A stretch of DNA of 64,000 nt. Source: Raja brachyura (lineage: Eukaryota). Position numbers and translations under genes: made by a program. The notes under the pieces were generated by a model. That model had not been told where the DNA came from and did no database searches. It saw only the letters and a program-made list of their open reading frames with translations. Where the stretch lies: NCBI GenBank assembly GCA_963514005.1, contig OY740787.1, forward strand, positions 71,176,001 through 71,240,000, given 5' to 3'. Shown here in pieces: positions 17,556 to 54,928 of the stretch. Numbering within the stretch: the first letter of the stretch is position 1; each line of letters begins with the position of its first letter.

Positions 17556-18300
17556 CTAGATCAAGGGTGACCTGTTTGGTCCTGTCCCCTCAATGCGTGG
17601 TTGGGGGGGGACGGCAGAGAGAGAGAGAGAGAGAGAGGGAGAGGGCAGAGAGAGAGCGGATGACAGGCACTGCAAGTGGAAAAGAGATGTATTAAAGCTT
17701 AATGTGAATAACTTATAATACAACAATTTAAATATTAAATATTAAAGATGAAATGTATTCACTTCAGTTATTTCTTGTTGTGTCTCTTGAGAGGGAGGAA
17801 GGGAGGGGGGTGGAGGGGAGAGGGGGAGTGGGAGTTGCGGTGGAGGGGGGAGGGGGTTGGAGGGGGGTAGTGGGGATGAGGGGCAGAGGGGGGAGAGAGA
17901 GGAGGGGGAGAGAGGGGGTGTAGACGGGGGGGTAGAAGGGAGGGGAGGTAGTAGAGGGGGAGATAGGGGAGAAGAGGGGGAGAGAGGGGGAAGCGGAGGG
18001 GGAGATGGGGAACGAGGGGTGAGAGAGGGTAGAGAGGAGAGAGGAGGGGGGAGACAGGAGGCGGAGACAGGAGGGGGAGAGAGGGGGGAAAGGGAGGGGG
18101 GAAAGGGAGGGGGGAAAGGGAGGGGGGAAAGGGAGGGGGGAAAGGGAGGGGGGAAAGGGAGGGGGGAAAGGGAGGGGGGAAAGGGAGGGGGGTGTAGGGG
18201 AGAGGATGAGGGGGTGGAGATGGGGAGAGGGGGGAAGGGAGGGGGAGAGAGGATGGGGAGAGAGGGGGGGTAGAGGGGAGAGGGGGGGATGTGGATGTGG
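17556..18300 (-). mobile_element. Helitron-like non-autonomous element with long G/A low-complexity tract
   Basis: Reverse complement ends ...ttgaggggacaggaccaaacaggtcacccttgatCTAG|t, homologous to 19765-19817; purine-rich tract 17790-18290. Confidence 0.55.
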
Positions 18301-19149: not shown

Positions 19150-21044
19150 TCTATTACCAAATGCCCATTCAAATGTGCAGCATGGCATTAGCCACAGCAT
19201 TCAGATAGGGCAGAAAACACGGCAGACGAATGCCAAATATTACAATATGCCAATGAATATTACGAGTTCAATATTCACCGTTCTTCCTGTGAGCATAGTT
19301 TGTGCTAGCCCAACAATCTCATCAATGGTTGCAGGTTGTGTTCATGTGCTGCAAGTGACATCGCCCGCTCGCTTGCAGCCCACTCGCTTTTCGCAGCACC
19401 CTCGCCCGGCCCCCCTCTTCCTCTACCCTCCTCCTCCTCTACCCCCCTCCTCTCTCCTCTACTCTCTCTCCTCCCTCCACCCCTTCCTCCTCCCCTCCCA
19501 CCCCCTCCCTCCCTCCCACCCCCTCTCCCTCCTCCCCCCACCCCCTCTCTCCCCCTCCTCTCTCTCCCCCCTCTCTACTCCCCTCCTCTCTCCCCCTCCC
19601 CCCCTCCCCCATTTCTCCCCCTCCGCCCTCCAAACCCCTCCACCGCCCTCCCTCTCCCGTCCACCGCCCTCCCTCCCCCTCTCCACCGCCATCCCTCCCC
19701 TCCCCCTCCCAAGTGTGTGGGGGGTGGTTGGTGTGTGCATTATGCCGCAGGCCGCCCCCCCACCCCCCACAACTGCGTGTTGAGGGGACGGGACCCAACG
19801 GGTCCCACTAGGTCTAGTACTTATTAAAACTATGATCTTATACGTGTGTACATGTGTGTGTATATGTGTGTGTATATATATGGGGATGTCTTTACATCTT
19901 TGCAAAAACACTACACTGTAACGATAACATTTTTACATATTTTGATTGACATCGTTCCCCTCGAGGCCGGGACTACCTTATCTGAACATTTTATGCTTAT
20001 TTCTCGACTCATTACTGATTAAAAGTCTAAAAAAGTCAAAAGACTTTGAAATTAAAATGACCACCTTCAACTGATGACGTCACAAGGCTAGGCTAGCAGT
20101 GATCAGCCTCACTGAAGATTTCATCCTATATTTGACACGTTATTCGCGATTACAGTTTAAAATGCCAACTTTCACAAGACGTTTTAACTTTTTGATTTAC
20201 ATTTTTCCCCTCTAGGCAGAGAGCACCTTCACTGAACACTTTATGCTTTATTTCTCGACTTATTACTGATTAAAGTTTAAAAAAATACTTTGAATTTAAA
20301 ACGACCAACTTTAACTGATGATGTCACAATGGTTCGACAGGAACACTCTGAACTTTTCACCTCACAGGAGGGGGAGGGCGAATTGCTATTGCAACATGCA
20401 GGGCAAGTGCAATTGGGGGCTACGGGTAGGGAACGGGTGTGTTGTGGGAGCAGACCCAACGGGTCTGCACTTGGTCTAGTATATATTACTAAAACTCTCA
20501 CATTGTTTGTTTGCGAGTCTGCCTGTCTGTGATTCAGGGATGCCCTGAACTACGCCAGAATGGTACACGATAGCTCTACAATTTTTGCACCACCTTACTC
20601 ACAATTGTATTGTGGTGTATTTTTTTAATCAATTTTCGTTCAGATTGATGTTATATTTTTACAAGTTATTCACATTTTTAACTTTACAAAATCCCACTTT
20701 GAGAAATATTTATTCCATCTGCACTGGCAATTACAGCTATGATGTCACAATGGGATGTAGCAATCCCAGGATACAATGTTGCAATCCCAGGATACTGAGT
20801 CCTGCCAGCCCTAGCAAGTGCAATTGCATTTTTATTTAAGTTTAAAATGAGGGAGGGTGAAAAAGGGCAAATGAGCCGCCCCTGCACAGTTGTGGGTTAT
20901 GGGTGAGTGGTGGAATATTGCGTTGGGGGAACGGGTTGTGTTGGGGGAACGGGTGAGTGGTCGAATATTGCATTGGGGAACGGGTTGCATTGGGGGACAA
21001 GGCCTTCCGTGTGACTGGGACCCAACGGATCCCAATTGGTCTAG
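19150..21044 (+). mobile_element. Three head-to-tail Helitron-like non-autonomous elements (ends at 19817, 20479, 21044)
   Basis: Each ends in a hairpin (e.g. gggaccc-aac-gggtccc), a ~7-nt spacer and CTAG followed by T; the first starts a|TCTATT at ~19150. Confidence 0.65.
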
Positions 21045-42811: not shown

Positions 42812-45065
42812 AAAGAAGGAACTGCAGATGCTGGAGAATCGAGGGTTACACAAAAAGCTGGAGAAACTCAGCGGGTGCAGCAGCATCTAAGGAGTGAAGG
42901 AGATAGGCGGCGTTTCGGGTCGAGACCCTTCTTCAGACTGGTCAGGGATCAGGGAAACGAGAGATATAAACAGTGATATGGAGAGATAAAGCAAGAACAA
43001 TGAGTGAAAGATATGCAAAAAAGTATTGGTGATAAGGAAAGCAGGCCATTGTAAGCTGTTTCTGGTGTGAAAATGAGAAGCTAGTGCGACTTGGGGGGGG
43101 GGGGGGGGGGAGATGGAGAAGGAATGTCAGGGCCCGAGGGCTGAGGGAGAGGTGGGGGGGTGGGGGGAAAAGAGCAGTCTGGGTTAACAGAATTGAGAAA
43201 ATTCAATGTTTAAGCCCAGAGGATGCAGACTCCCCAAGCGGAATATGAGATGTTATTCCTCAAACTTGCGGTGTTGTTCACTCTGGCCATGGAGGAGGCC
43301 CAGGACCGAGAGGTCGGATACGGAGTGGGAGGGGGAGTTGAAGTGCTGAGCCACCGGGAGGTCGGGTTGGTTATTGCGGACCGAGCGGAGGTGTTCGGCG
43401 AAACGATCGCCTAGCCTCCGCTTGGTCTCACCGATGTAGATTAGCTGGCATCTGGAGCAACGGATGCAGTAGACGAGGTTGGAGGAGATGCAGGTGAACC
43501 TCTGTCGGACTTGGAATGACTGCTTGGGTCCCTGAAAGGAGTGGATGGGGGAGGTGAAGGAACAAGTGTAGCATCTCTTGCGGTTGCAAGGGAAAGTGCC
43601 CGGGGAAGGAGTGGAGCAGGAGGGAAGGGAAGAATTGACGAGGGAGTTGCGGAGGGAGCGGTCTTTGCGGAAGGCAGATAGGGGGGGAGATGGGAAGATG
43701 TGGCGAGTGGAGGGGTCACGTTGGAGGTGGCGAAACTGGCGGAGGACTATCTGTTGTATGCGCTGGCTGGTGGGGTGAAAGGTGAGGACCAGGGGGACTC
43801 GGCCCTTGTTGTGAGTGGGGGAATGGGGAGAGAGGGCAGTGTTGCGGGGTATGGAGGAGACCCTGGTGCGAGCCTCATCGATAGTGGGGGAGGGGAAACC
43901 CCGTCCTCTGAAGAACGAGGACATTTGCGATGACCTGGTGTGGAACACGTCATCCTGGGAGCAGATGCGGCGTAGTCGGAGGAATTGGGAATAGGGGATG
44001 GAGTCCTTACAGGAAGCAGGGTGGGAGGAAGAGTAGTCCAGGTAGCTGTGGGAGTCAGTTGGTTTGTAGTGGATGTCAGTCAGGAGTGTGTCACCTGCAA
44101 TAGAGATGGTGAGGTCAAGGAATGGTAGGGAAATGTCGGAAATGGTCCAAGTATATTTGAGTGCCGGATGGAAGTTGGTGGTGAAATGGATAAAGTCAGT
44201 CAGTTCTGCGTGGGTGCAGGAGGTGACACCAAAGCAGTCGTCAATGTAACGGAGGTAAAGGTCGGGGGTGGGGCCCTGGTACGTCGAGAACAAAGATTGT
44301 TCGACGTACCCGACAAAGAGGCAGGCGTAGCTAGGGCCCATGCGTGTGCCCATAGCTACGCCTTGTGTTTGGAGGAAATGGGAGGAGTCAAAAGAGAAGT
44401 TGTTTAGGGTAAGGACCAACTCCGCTAGGCGGAGGAGGGTGTCAGTGGATGGGTATGGGTTGCTCCTCTGGTTGAGGAAGTACCAGCCCTCCGGTTCGTT
44501 TCGCCGAACACCTCCGCTCGGTCCGCAATAACCAACCCGACCTCCCGGTGGCTCAGCACTTCAACTCCCCCTCCCACTCCGTATCCGACCTCTCGGTCCT
44601 GGGCCTCCTCCATGGCCAGAGTGAACAACACCGCAAGTTTGAGGAACAACATCTCATATTCCGCTTGGGGAGTCTGCATCCTCTGGGCTTAAACATTGAA
44701 TTTTCTCAATTCTGTTAACCCAGACTGCTCTTTTCCCCCCACCCCCCCCCACCTCTCCCTCAGCCCTCGGGCCCTGACGTTCCTTCTCCACCCCCCCCCC
44801 CCCCCCCCCCCCCAAGTCGCACTAGCTTCTCATTTTCACACCAGAAACAGCTTACAATGGCCTGCTTTCCTTATCACCAATACTTTTTTGCATATCTTTC
44901 ACTCATTGTTCTTGCTTTATCTCTCCATATCACTGTTTATATCTCTCGTTTCCCTGATCCCTGACCAGTCTGAAGAAGGGTCTCGACCCGAAACGTCGCC
45001 TATCTCCTTCACTCCTTAGATGCTGCTGCACCCGCTGAGTTTCTCCAGCTTTTTGTGTAACCCTC
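42812..45065 (-). mobile_element. Penelope-like retroelement (RT plus GIY-YIG endonuclease), 5'-truncated, with ~570-bp inverted terminal arms and a 12-14 bp TSD
   Basis: ORF 43253-44419: QTQGVAMGTRMGPSYA, RYIDD, LPFLD, NLVYCIRC...YIGETKRRLGDRFAEH; arms 42841-43406 and 44496-45065; (tc)cagcaaaaggtt on both flanks. Confidence 0.93.
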
Positions 45066-45584: not shown

Positions 45585-47267
45585 CTAACCAAGCCAAGAA
45601 GAATAAAGTTACATTATTTACAATTTATCTTAAGGTTTTAAATTATGGTCAAAATGAAGAGATGGGTAGGATTATTAAGTTAGGTAGATTAGATGGGTTT
45701 TTTTTTAAACTGTTGCATGAGCATTAAAACAAAGTTTTCAATAGGAAAATGTAATCTGGAATAGGAAACATTGAAGTAGTTTGAATGTTATGTCCGACCA
45801 GCGTCCTTCAAACATAAATTTGTGAGAGTCTAAACACTTGTAGAGTTAATGATCTACAACTGTTAACACTAAACTATTAGTACAAATGATGTTAAAAATG
45901 TACTTGTGAAAATGAAAATGAATAATGATAGCAAAAAAAACTCAACATGGCCCAGAATTTGTTGTGCATGGCTCATTGAGGCTCATTTTCAGCTTAAAAA
46001 TTATTTGTCCTACAAATAACTGAAAATGTAGCTTGATACCAGTTTGATAACTAGGATCTCTGTGAATGATGAAATAAGTATTCCACCTCTTCAATCAATG
46101 ACTCTTACAGATAAAAAAAAAGGTTGCTACTGAAATGGAGATCGATCAAATCTGAGCCAAATGTGTCACAAATTAAAACAAGGGGAAATTATGAAATGAA
46201 AATAATGAAAAGGAACATTTTATAATTAAAAACTTGCAGAGATAATATCCATAATTTCAATTCAAATTGTGGCTCGTTAATCAAATTTAAATGGCTTTGT
46301 AGGAAGTTAAATCTTAGCAAGAAACTGATCCTCAGATTATTAAGTACCAGCCACAACTTTCTTAAAGTTTGATTCAAAGAAAGCAATTATTTTTAACTCC
46401 TGAAGGAGCTGATGGCAAGATCCAATTATCTTAGGACCAATCGCTAAGGAATGCATAAATCTGCAATAATTTGTGGTGAGTTCCCCATCACAATTGGTAT
46501 CGTTTTTAATCTGTTTTTAAGAATGACTTCATTACAATTGCCATTAATTTCCTTGCAAATTCTGGGCCAATACATTTAAGGAACTTTTTTTATCAAGATA
46601 TAAAAATTAAAAATATACTGTCTGGCAGGGAAATAGCAGCTTCTAATCTAAGATGTTTAATGCCTGTGAAAAATAGTTTGGCATAGTTTATCTCAATAAA
46701 ATTAGATTCTTTGAATCCATTGGAAAAATTGTGCAAGTGACTGGACTGTCAAAACCTTTTCCCAATATTCAACAATGTCACAGTCATATCCATTATTAAA
46801 GTTAATTGTATGGTTTACCATGATATAAACTAATCAATTAAATGCGACAAAGAAGTAGCTGTTAAATGCGAAAAGAAGTAGCTGTTGTCTCTCCTGTGTC
46901 TATATTGTGTGCAAAATGGCACAATACGAGTTTATTTCAAGGACAAAAAGCATGTTTGAATGTCATCACAACACAATTTTGGACTATGTATTTGTGGCTG
47001 CCGAAAAAATATATTATGCTCCTTTATATACAAATATAGAGCATGATATCTGATTTAGGCCCCCTTTGGGGAAACTACATAGTGATTTATACAGTAGGAA
47101 TTGAGTCAAGAATATTTTCCATCAAATTGACAAGACTCTTGTTAACTGGACTATACAGAGTTTCCATTCCTGATTTTTCAGATTTCCGATGGTCAATTTA
47201 AATCTTGTTTATTTAATATTCTAATATTTTTATTTATTTGCCTGCCATCCAGAAAATTTACCCTTAC

Positions 47268-47378
47268 CTCTTGGGCTGGTTCAGGTTTGGCTACAGTTAT
47301 TTTTGAAACAGTGAAGTGAGGAATTGCACTGGAAAGTTTGTGGTCCAAATGTACTGTAGATTCTGATGCTCTTTCAAT
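47268..47378 (-). CDS. ttn: ttn exon hEx15
   Basis: IERASESTVHLDHKLSSAIPHFTVSKITVAKPEPAQE; conserved PHFTVSKI; absent from the ORF track. Confidence 0.88.
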
Positions 47379-47534
47379 CTATAGCAACCAACAAAACCTT
47401 TATTATGTTTAATCCACCGTGAACTAATAAAATTGAAAATAAAAGTTCTCTCAAGATGATTTTCACAGTTAACATAGATAAAATCATTTTTGTCAACATT
47501 AACTCAGTGTTTTATGAGTTAAACGAAGTCTAAC

Positions 47535-47825
47535 CTGTGAAATGTGTTTTTCAGCTTGTTCGCCATAGGAAATTTGTGTTTCAGTTGGCACAATAACTGT
47601 CTCTTTTCTGACAGTTGTGGTGACAACTTGTTGTTCAGCAGGGGGTGCTCGTTTCTCAGCAGAAAACTCAGTGGCACTTTGACATAGACCACGCTGTGCA
47701 TATTCATACTCCATACGTGTCTCTTCTGAACGCGCTCCTTCAGCATACACCGGATGTCTAGTACGTGCTTGATCCACAGCAGCCAACACCTTAGCCACAG
47801 CTTCAGCCTTTTTGCCAACCTCAAT
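47535..47825 (-). CDS. ttn: ttn exon hEx14, last Z-repeat (Zr7-like) plus following unique sequence
   Basis: IEVGKKAEAVAKVLAAVDQARTRHP, matching the recalled Zr7 GKKAEAVATVVAAVDQARVREP; 291 nt. Confidence 0.9.
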
Positions 47826-48460
47826 CTGCAGACAACAAGGGCTAAGTCTGCAAAAGCACTCATAGTCTAATCTTAAATATCACAAGATTAACTATGAACT
47901 TCAAAACCAATACCATGTTGAACTTTGATCTGTCACATTAAGGTCAATGCCTTATTGACAAATTACTCGTTTGTTTTAAATAAATTGTTACTTTCAGAAG
48001 CAGATTAATTTTCTTATTCAAAATAAATTAAAATGGGAAGTAATTGATCCCTTAAAGTGTAAATATTTGCGTTGCAAATTGGTATTGTTTTTCACAGCAA
48101 AACGCACACTACACATTTACACCCAGTACAGATTTTAAGCATACCATCTAAAAGTACATGATCATTACGTGCATGGTGGTTCACGCTTTATTCGGGAAGT
48201 GACAATTAAACTCAGAGATACAAGAGTAAGAACGTGAGAGTGTGAAATTAAAGGATAGTGAAGTAGCAAATCGGAAGGGCACAAATGCAGTGGAGTACCA
48301 TTGAAAATTAACTATACAACTACAAGGGAAAAGTGGCAAAACTAAGTGTTACATTTAAAAAACCTTTCATGAGAACGTTGTAGTGATAGTTGTGAGGCTA
48401 AAGTCTATAGATGGAGACAAATAAGTAAAGTTGAAGTTATTCTTTTGTGATTCAAACTAC

Positions 48461-48616
48461 CTGATCCTCAACTGGTTGTGGTTGATCTATGGACACACAC
48501 TCAGAAGTGGTTCTTTCTGTGGCATTGGTTACAGAAACTGGTTCACGTACTCTGGCTTGGTCAATAGCGGCTACCACAGTAGCTACTGCTGTCGTTTTCT
48601 CAATGCCTTGTTCTAA
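48461..48616 (-). CDS. ttn: ttn exon hEx8, first Z-repeat
   Basis: EKTTAVATVVAAIDQARVREP motif; 156 nt, phase 0/0. Confidence 0.9.
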
Positions 48617-48947
48617 CTGAATTCCATGCAGCAAAAAATACATTTTATTATAGGTCATGCAACTAAATAACTGAAAGATAATTTACAAAATAAATCTGCA
48701 ATTGGGCAATATATAAAATGCAATTGCATACAGATATATTTGAAGCGTAAATATGAAAATAAAATGTCTTTACAGTTATAATGATTTCTTACACATTCAA
48801 GCAAGAAATTGGTTAATTTTCCACAGATCTATCTCAAAGTTATCAAACTCAATATTTCTAATATTGAGATCAGACCACTGTTCCTAATTATTAACAGTTT
48901 TAATTTTGCAGTATGTGACATGCTTGATAAAAATGTATTATGCTTAC

Positions 48948-49866
48948 CTGCTGCCCTGCACCTGAAACACCAACAGCAACACCAGTCATTCCAACAGCTG
49001 TGGCAATTCCTTCATCAATGGAGACTTTAACAACAGCAGGAGCTCCTTCAACAACTCTTGTTGATCGTTCAACTGTGGTAATTCTTGGAGCAGCAACGGA
49101 TCGTTCAACTGTGGTAATTCTTGGAGCAGCAACAGATCGTTCAACTGTGGTTATTCTCATGGCACCAGCAGCACCAAGGCCTCCTTCGATTGTGGTCACT
49201 CTGGAAGCTCCTGACATACTAGCACTTTGTTCAATTGTAGTAACTTTAGCAGCATATACTGCACCAGAGGCACCTGCTGCACCAGCAGCTCTTGCTGCAC
49301 CAGCGGCACCTGCTGCACCAGCAGCTCTTGCTGCACCAGCGGCACCTGCTGCACCTGCGGTATATGCTGCATCAGAAGCACCTGCGGCATATGCTGCACC
49401 AGCAGCACCTGCGGAACCAGCGGCATATGCTGCACCAGCGGCACCTGATGCACCAGCGGCACCTGCTGCACCAGCTGCATATGCTGCACCAGAGCCACCT
49501 GTGGCATATGTTGCACCAGCGGCACCCGATGCACCAGCGGCACCAGCTGCACCAGCGGCATATGCTGCACCAGAGGCGCCTGCTGCACCAGCTGCATATA
49601 CTGCACCAGCAGCTCCAGTGATCATCATTTGACTATGGACTCCATATCTCCCTTCCCATTTTTCTTCTCTGTGAATCTGTGTAGTACTTGTAGTAGATCT
49701 GCTTTCTCTTATTTTTGTTTCAGTTGACGCAACATAACCTTCCTGCTTCCAAGGCGGTACAGCTTCTGAAGTGACAACTGTAGTTGCCTGAGATTTACGA
49801 GTGAGAAGTGGCGATTTCACTGATCGGATCGGTGATGTTGAGAGTCTTCCAGCTGGAGATACAGAT
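48948..49866 (-). CDS. ttn: ttn exon hEx7, expanded (919 nt) by Ala/Gly/Tyr-rich and 12-aa tandem repeats
   Basis: [19 protein letters not shown]...VPPWKQEGY...[10 protein letters not shown]; open frame through the repeats to CAG|gtaagc. Confidence 0.88.
49063..49157 (-). repeat. 36-bp coding tandem repeat, about 2.6 copies ([12 protein letters not shown])
   Basis: gatcgttcaactgtgg starts at 49063, 49099 and 49135. Confidence 0.9.
49250..49618 (-). repeat. Coding low-complexity tandem repeat (GAAGAA/YAA units; 9-bp GGTGCAGCA-like DNA core)
   Basis: Recurrent tgctgcaccagc on the + strand; protein [21 protein letters not shown]. Confidence 0.9.
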
Positions 49867-50240
49867 CTGTAAAATAAATATTAGCCACATTTATATTTAA
49901 TATCATAGGCAAAGGGTCAGATGCATTTGTGATTCAGTGGTATATTTCTCAATTTCCAAATGGTAAATGTGCTTTTGATTTAAAAAAAAGACTACTCAGA
50001 TTATTCAATCAACATAGATTGTATAGACCTATATTAATGAAAAAGGAAATAAATGACTTCATTTTATTATTCTTACTGTTACTTTTCATTTCACAGATTG
50101 CTTTCACAAAAAATAAGATGAAATTTCAGTGTAACATCCTGCATAATGAACTGCATAACAACTGCACATTTATTAAACATGATTTTCCCAGTGATTTATG
50201 GAAGATATTTAACTGTTCAATTTTTTTTTTTAATTCTTAC

Positions 50241-50449
50241 CGTACAGGTGAAGGTGCTGGAGCTCTCACATGACGAACAGGCGATGGGGATTGTTGGCGA
50301 GTGATTTTGCCAACAAAAGCTGTTGGGGTTGGAGATCTAGATGTTGGTTTCGGTGGGATGCGTGGAGGAGTCTTATGATGTAGATCTGCTCTTCCATCTG
50401 CAACCATTTCAATTGTTGAAGATCTCCCTTCAAATTGAGTTTCCATTTT
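50241..50449 (-). CDS. ttn: ttn exon hEx6, Ser/Pro-rich Z-disc insertion
   Basis: KMETQFEGRS...HKTPPRIPPKPTSRSPTP...QQSPSPVRHVRAPAPSPVR. Confidence 0.93.
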
Positions 50450-50531
50450 CTAAAACATAAAAACACTGTAGTGGCTTATATGCAATTGGAACAAATTTTA
50501 AATGTGAAAATGTAATTAAATGTTGAGATAC

Positions 50532-50620
50532 CTTTTCAATGTGGGTTTGCCTTGCTTGTGAAATTTCAGTGGAAGTAATAATTGTCTTTGTCTTTTTAGC
50601 AGGCACAACTTCTTCATCGG
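50532..50620 (-). CDS. ttn: ttn exon hEx5, Z-disc unique sequence
   Basis: DEEVVPAKKTKTIITSTEISQARQTHIEK; ag/gt ends. Confidence 0.92.
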
Positions 50621-50703
50621 CTGTTAAAAAATTAAAATGTTTCAATTAATGTAGAAACTAGCACAATATTGTTTCGATATGCAAAAAAACAAACAACAAA
50701 TAC

Positions 50704-54837: not shown

Positions 54838-54928
54838 CACCAATATGCGCTTCAAAGGTTGCGGCACTACCCTCTAGTGCCACAACACTTTGAAGCGGAT
54901 GTAAAAATGTCGGAGCTTGTGTTGTCAT
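54838..54928 (-). CDS. ttn: ttn first coding exon (hEx2; exon starts at 54940), Z1 Ig start
   Basis: ag|GTGCCAATAAAG ATG ACA ACA CAA GCT CCG; 91 coding nt; G|gtaagt donor. Confidence 0.95.

Follow-up and report, generated by a model that had tools for sequence, protein, structure and literature searches.

Titin carries, between the Ig domain Z2 and the Z-repeats, a Ser/Pro-rich insertion that is called Zis-1 in the available parts of two papers (PMC13638043, PMC3114084). Whether the number of Z-repeats sets the width of the Z-disc, and where Z1Z2 is located in the disc, are debated in the accessible sections of PMC13638043 and PMC2132961. According to the available part of PMC12241362, titin of the elephant shark (Callorhinchus milii) possesses only Zr1 and Zr7; its cDNA was PCR-amplified across Z2-Z3, and exons four and five after Z2 encode the two Z-repeats, as in the stretch of 64,000 nucleotides from Raja brachyura that was analysed here (the window). 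Neither "glycine" nor "alanine" appears in the available main text of that paper (0 occurrences), and its supplement text says nothing of a repeat. A literature search by titles and abstract openings, outside the subscription journals, found no paper describing such an expansion, which is apparently undescribed.

The window contains the 5' end of titin on its minus strand, where the Callorhinchus titin model is colinear exon by exon from 54928 to 41339 (tblastn). The start codon lies at 54928, and the Ig domains Z1 and Z2, Zis-1, the Z-repeats and Z3 (an I-set domain) follow in this order on one strand, as expected of the vertebrate titin Z-disc region. A profile search placed Titin_Z (PF09042) above cut-off in two exons directly downstream of the focal exon and 0 times within it, giving the window two Z-repeats, one Zr1-like and one Zr7-like. 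The colinear exons and the two PF09042 exons support the placement, proposed earlier from the sequence alone, between Z1Z2 and the Z-repeats. The features are as follows:

50241..50449 (-): preceding proline-rich Zis-1 exon, 209 nt, donor GTAAGA, phase in agreement with the focal exon
48948..49866 (-): focal titin exon, 919 nt, third between Z2 and Z3, phase 2 to 0, terminating the Zis-1 linker; donor used in spliced contigs of sequencing runs X1, X4 and X12
49617..49865 (-): conserved Zis-1 part, aa 1-83 of the focal exon, with SP motifs, PPWK and WEGRY
49248..49616 (-): triplet repeat, 41 nine-nucleotide units, 123 aa, [G/Y/R/D]-A-[A/S] triplets
48948..49247 (-): Val/Ala/Thr/Gly tail, 100 aa, homologous to the Callorhinchus tail
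48461..48616 (-): first Z-repeat exon (Zr1-like), 156 nt, in-frame cassette, PF09042 E 3e-12; absent from the spliced contigs seen
47535..47825 (-): second Z-repeat exon (Zr7-like), 291 nt, PF09042 E 1.5e-20; spliced on both sides

The focal exon reads openly through 306 codons (49866-48948) from the acceptor TTTTACAG|A to the donor CAG|GTAAGC, with the conserved part at aa 1-83, the repeat at aa 84-206 and the tail at aa 207-306. The sequence-only reading had already given the 919 nt in frame to this donor, a repeat of about 125 residues of GAAGAA/YAA type and a human equivalent of about 330 nt, and all three hold, the human exon having 110 aa (330 nt, P0092); the excess over it, repeat and tail together, is 196 aa. 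The first 86 aa, covering the conserved part, share 72% identity with Callorhinchus milii titin, the best protein match, and 59-72% with amniote titins. Within the own genome, the conserved part matches at one place, and so does the Zr7 exon. The focal exon resembles Zis-1 as presented in the available parts of PMC13638043 and PMC3114084 in being the same exon with the same SP motifs, PPWK...WEGRY core and neighbours, whereas its 196 extra residues, the triplet repeat and tail, are missing from the sampled bony vertebrates.

The repeat consists of 56% Ala, 25% Gly, 6.5% Tyr and 6% Ser, with 0% Pro. The first position of the 41 triplets is occupied by Gly in 30, Tyr in eight, Arg in two and Asp in one, while the second is Ala in 38 of 41 and the third Ala or Ser in 37 of 41. 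This three-residue register places 30 of 31 Gly in a single phase, a phasing reached by 0 of 100000 shuffles, and Gly gaps are 3, 6 or 9 in 28 of 30 cases. Tyr or Arg recur at spacings of 9, 12 or 18 residues, with Tyr always on the Gly position. At the DNA level, unit lengths are all multiples of 9 nt, and 17 of the 41 units are one of two 9-mers. The computed contour length of the repeat is about 47 nm. Matches in the ESM Atlas all stood at 0.80 or lower. An AlphaFold model of the block, which as a single-sequence prediction is weak evidence, gave a mean pLDDT of 46 with 0 residues at or above 70, and drew the repeat as helices at pLDDT 50-60. As for other DNA matches to the repeat in the own genome, the two arrays examined (4 of 8 loci, on contigs C22 and C16) are unrelated minisatellites. 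These arrays (loci L002 and L003) are of GCT/GGT type, about 0.9-1.4 kb long and open in most frames, and are probably non-coding; the one on C22 sits within retroelement-like sequence.

The repeat had been called fibroin- or elastin-like, a description that its sequence does not support. Silk is characterized by a (GA)n register such as GAGAGS/GAGAGY, or by poly-Ala blocks. The repeat shares the Ala/Gly/Tyr/Ser composition of silk fibroin and spidroins, yet it has 0 GAGA motifs and a longest Ala run of 2, its Gly register is of three rather than two residues, and it is one short, intracellular block within titin, with no poly-Ala block. A collagen triple helix requires unbroken, Pro-rich Gly-X-Y, while only 30 of the 41 triplets here begin with Gly, and Pro is absent; the collagen profile PF01391 scored 25 bits, under its cut-off of 27.2. 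Collagen-type sequence matches in the PDB were set aside, as they reflect the register only. Elastomeric proteins are described as high in both Pro and Gly in the available part of PMC5424786, where a numeric threshold was not seen, and the repeat, with Pro 0% and Gly 25%, does not fit this description. In the accessible text of PMC10235112, collembolan polyproline-II (PPII) helical bundles consist of G-X1-X2 repeats in which X1 is often Gly. Like these bundles and collagen, the repeat has Gly at each third position, but 11 of its 41 Gly positions are Tyr, Arg or Asp, Pro is lacking, and X1 is Gly in just 1 of 41 triplets (definition taken from the same part of PMC10235112).

The tail contains a 36-nt unit repeated 2.6 times (49063-49157), and a Pfam profile search matched no family in it. 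Its alignment score with the Callorhinchus tail was reached by 4 of 3000 shuffles. For the repeat, in contrast, no homology with the Callorhinchus repeat was found, the score being reached by 2963 of 3000 shuffles. A GAAGAAA stretch in human titin had been proposed as the seed of the expansion; its likeness to the repeat is compositional only (score reached by 879 of 3000 shuffles).

To place the exon among vertebrates, 156 related proteins were gathered by homolog and representative searches, the homolog searches covering titins of up to 9746 aa; no shark, ray, coelacanth, lungfish, gar or bichir titin was among these 156. In 118 of them (the other 38 missing an anchor), PPWK and the first Z-repeat motif lie a median of 76 and a minimum of 49 aa apart; mammals range over 65-85 aa, a spread of about 20 aa. 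This distance is 278 aa in the window and exceeds 127 aa, among the 118, only in Callorhinchus (311) and hagfish (168). The highest Ala+Gly+Ser count per 60 residues was 54 in the window, 46 in Callorhinchus and at most 35 in all others (152 PPWK proteins). The linker is short in Xenopus, in amniotes and in every named teleost protein (11 proteins from 10 species). As well, PPWK and the Zr7 motif (101 proteins) lie mostly about 300-360 aa apart in mammals, 311 in Callorhinchus, 49-114 in teleosts and 110-115 in most bird models; in the window this spacing is 278 aa without Zr1 and 330 aa with the 52-aa Zr1 exon.

The equivalent exon in Callorhinchus milii (XP_042192253.1, P0002; an automatic gene model) encodes 340 aa and possesses a Gly/Ser/Ala/Ile 9-mer repeat with 14 matches over 183 aa. 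Both titins thus have a proline-free low-complexity expansion at the same position, a homologous tail and two Z-repeats, whereas the Callorhinchus 9-mer is unrelated in sequence to the G/Y-A-A triplets. A titin fragment of the hagfish Eptatretus burgeri (UniRef100_A0A8C4N5Y2, P0049) also carries a low-complexity expansion in the Zis-1 linker, at about residues 335-450. This 113-aa Ala/Glu/Arg-rich block differs in being charged and in beginning directly after PPWKQED, and is probably of independent origin; it looks helix-prone and represents a third kind of expansion in Zis-1. On the sequences compared, which for chondrichthyans are two species and related runs, the expansion is shared in position with the elephant shark and so is not unique to the species. 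The earlier claim of lineage specificity drew the lineage too narrowly: the sampled bony vertebrates lack the block, while elephant shark and hagfish have other low-complexity blocks in the same linker.

Fifteen sequencing runs contain part of the exon, 0 of them annotated as RNA, and the contigs of four (X1, X4, X10 and X12) were compared with 47150-50660. X1, X4 and X12 share two GT-AG joints, one linking the 48948 donor with 47825 and the other 47535 with 47378; RNA status was inferred for the three runs from these joints. X1, which comes from a related organism, was treated as RNA despite a "probably DNA" mark, because its splicing is precise. X10 has no splice joints, and its introns are covered. 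An 8470-nt contig of X1 joins two exons lying downstream to an unbroken 48948-49298, which places the tail and the final 51 nt of the repeat in a spliced molecule. Contigs of X12 also extend to 49298, at a depth of about 500 against 5-10 in introns, while coverage in X4 stops within the tail. Relative to the focal exon, X1 has 14 codon differences, eight non-synonymous and six synonymous, which are small numbers. Each of the three spliced runs omits the Zr1 exon (48948 to 47825) and so has Zr7 alone; the available part of PMC12241362 reports an elephant shark splice variant without both Z-repeats, not a Zr7-alone form. In one X12 contig (depth 65.7), the 48948 donor and 47378 are separated by 291 letters of other sequence; this insert equals the Zr7 exon in length but did not align to it at 85% likeness. 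It could be a divergent allele, a transcript of another species or a display quirk. X12 also has 23 extra bases at 48831, in the intron 3' of the focal exon.

Upstream, coverage falls to 0 from 49545 to 50660 and is little in mid-repeat in all four runs, including the unspliced X10, and no contig spans the whole repeat, which could be read as an assembly artefact or as the repeat being spliced out of mRNA. We consider this highly improbable. The contig breaks coincide with repeated 31-mers (49269-49325), up to which the spliced contigs run from the donor, and another X1 contig, at a depth of just 4.7 and perhaps erroneous, spans 49434-49544 with exactly 9 nt deleted within the repeat. Six runs of organisms D and E (two studies; D may be the source of the assembly) contain 0.81-0.94 of 92 sampled words of the exon, and since 38% of the exon 31-mers fall entirely inside the repeat, at least about half of the repeat words would be present in them if sampling was even. 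No competing in-frame donor was found upstream of or inside the repeat, as the best of 26 in-frame GT sites has 4 of 9 consensus matches by a crude score, compared with 8 of 9 at 48948. We infer inclusion of the full repeat, whose middle and upstream side are thinly covered, from the use of the donor, which had been proposed from the letters and is borne out by X1, X4 and X12, and from spliced X1 and X12 contigs that reach into the repeat from its 3' side. The exon is real and in frame, and very likely expressed.

Among the three roles suggested for the segment beforehand (spacer, elastic element, self-associating segment), a spacer fits best, and the other two found no support here. We somewhat favor the view that the repeat and tail at the end of Zis-1 form a spacer, flexible and largely without structure, that separates telethonin-bound Z1Z2 from the alpha-actinin-binding Z-repeats. 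Position and rough length are kept (306 aa here, 340 aa in Callorhinchus) and the repeat sequence is not, and spacer-like behavior is suggested because length and small-residue make-up persist while sequence turns over. The long exon would predate the split of holocephalans and the skate lineage, the repeat having been replaced afterwards, and selection would act on length and small-residue composition rather than on sequence. The repeat may have grown in steps of 9 nt through slippage or unequal crossing-over, in line with the 9-nt unit structure and the 9-nt deletion in X1 (depth 4.7); alternatively, structural selection could account for the strict register, in which Tyr always takes the Gly position. 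The PPWK-Zr7 distances suggest that the block is about as long as the missing Z-repeats 2-6; in a titin with just two Z-repeats, it might extend the reach of the N-terminus to roughly that in mammals, though the match with mammals may be coincidental. The hagfish linker, which tolerates an unrelated 113-aa Ala/Glu block, also counts for a spacer, as does, weakly, the lack of a confident predicted fold (mean pLDDT 46). Against it, the AlphaFold model places helices in the repeat (pLDDT 50-60, single sequence), and the distances of 49-114 aa in teleosts and 110-115 aa in most bird models indicate that a long spacer is not required in vertebrates.

Absence of the block in teleosts could also point to a tolerated coding minisatellite without function, at a site that accepts insertions and whose length is unselected. 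The three unrelated low-complexity blocks in three lineages, the mammalian variation of about 20 aa and the similar GCT/GGT minisatellites elsewhere in the own genome, apparently outside genes, agree with this reading, but it is unlikely given that both chondrichthyans are similar in exon length with a homologous tail despite repeat turnover, and that both their repeats retain small, uncharged, proline-free residues. A load-bearing element in the Z-disc, either an elastin- or PEVK-like spring or an Ala-rich helical rod, would suit the contour length of about 47 nm and the low-confidence helices of the AlphaFold model. Gly at every third position disfavors a helix, however, and works against such a rod here, and the absence of Pro is unlike elastomeric proteins. 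Since the block also precedes the alpha-actinin and actin anchors in the chain, and stress at the Z1Z2 end is doubted in the available part of a review (PMC3114084), this role seems very unlikely. The strict G-X-X register and regularly spaced Tyr speak for a self-associating segment, in which beta-sheet or polyproline-II packing with Tyr as sticker would cross-link titin N-termini in the Z-disc. The Callorhinchus period of 9 is also divisible by three, and zero Pro with moderate Gly falls on the aggregation-prone side of the Pro/Gly plot in the accessible part of PMC5424786, numeric threshold not seen. Self-association is nevertheless quite unlikely, as the GAGA motif and poly-Ala block are absent, the X1 Gly often present in PPII bundles is almost missing, and the Callorhinchus repeat is unrelated in sequence. 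A bolder proposal, decidedly improbable, joins both ideas: cartilaginous fishes would set titin Z-disc reach by a fast-turnover, proline-free Gly/Ala block replacing Z-repeats 2-6, whose Tyr-punctuated triplets self-associate as an intracellular silk-like cross-link between N-termini.

Cartilaginous fishes offer a natural test for the debate on Z-disc width, because they combine two Z-repeats, as in teleosts, with a linker of mammal-like length built from low-complexity sequence that is non-binding. If Z-disc width and the position of Z1Z2 were compared across shark or ray, teleost and mammal muscle, the effect of length could be told apart from that of the number of alpha-actinin sites. Moreover, the end of Zis-1 is marked as a site tolerating large insertions.

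Finally, two other elements were observed in the window. The intron before Z3 contains a 435-aa open frame (43256-44560, minus strand) with reverse-transcriptase-like motifs by eye and a GIY-YIG match below the cut-off (E 5e-4), which is probably a Penelope-like retroelement. At 17790-18290 and 19410-19710, about 1.1 kb apart, are long purine/pyrimidine tracts, G-rich and C-rich, oriented in opposite directions.
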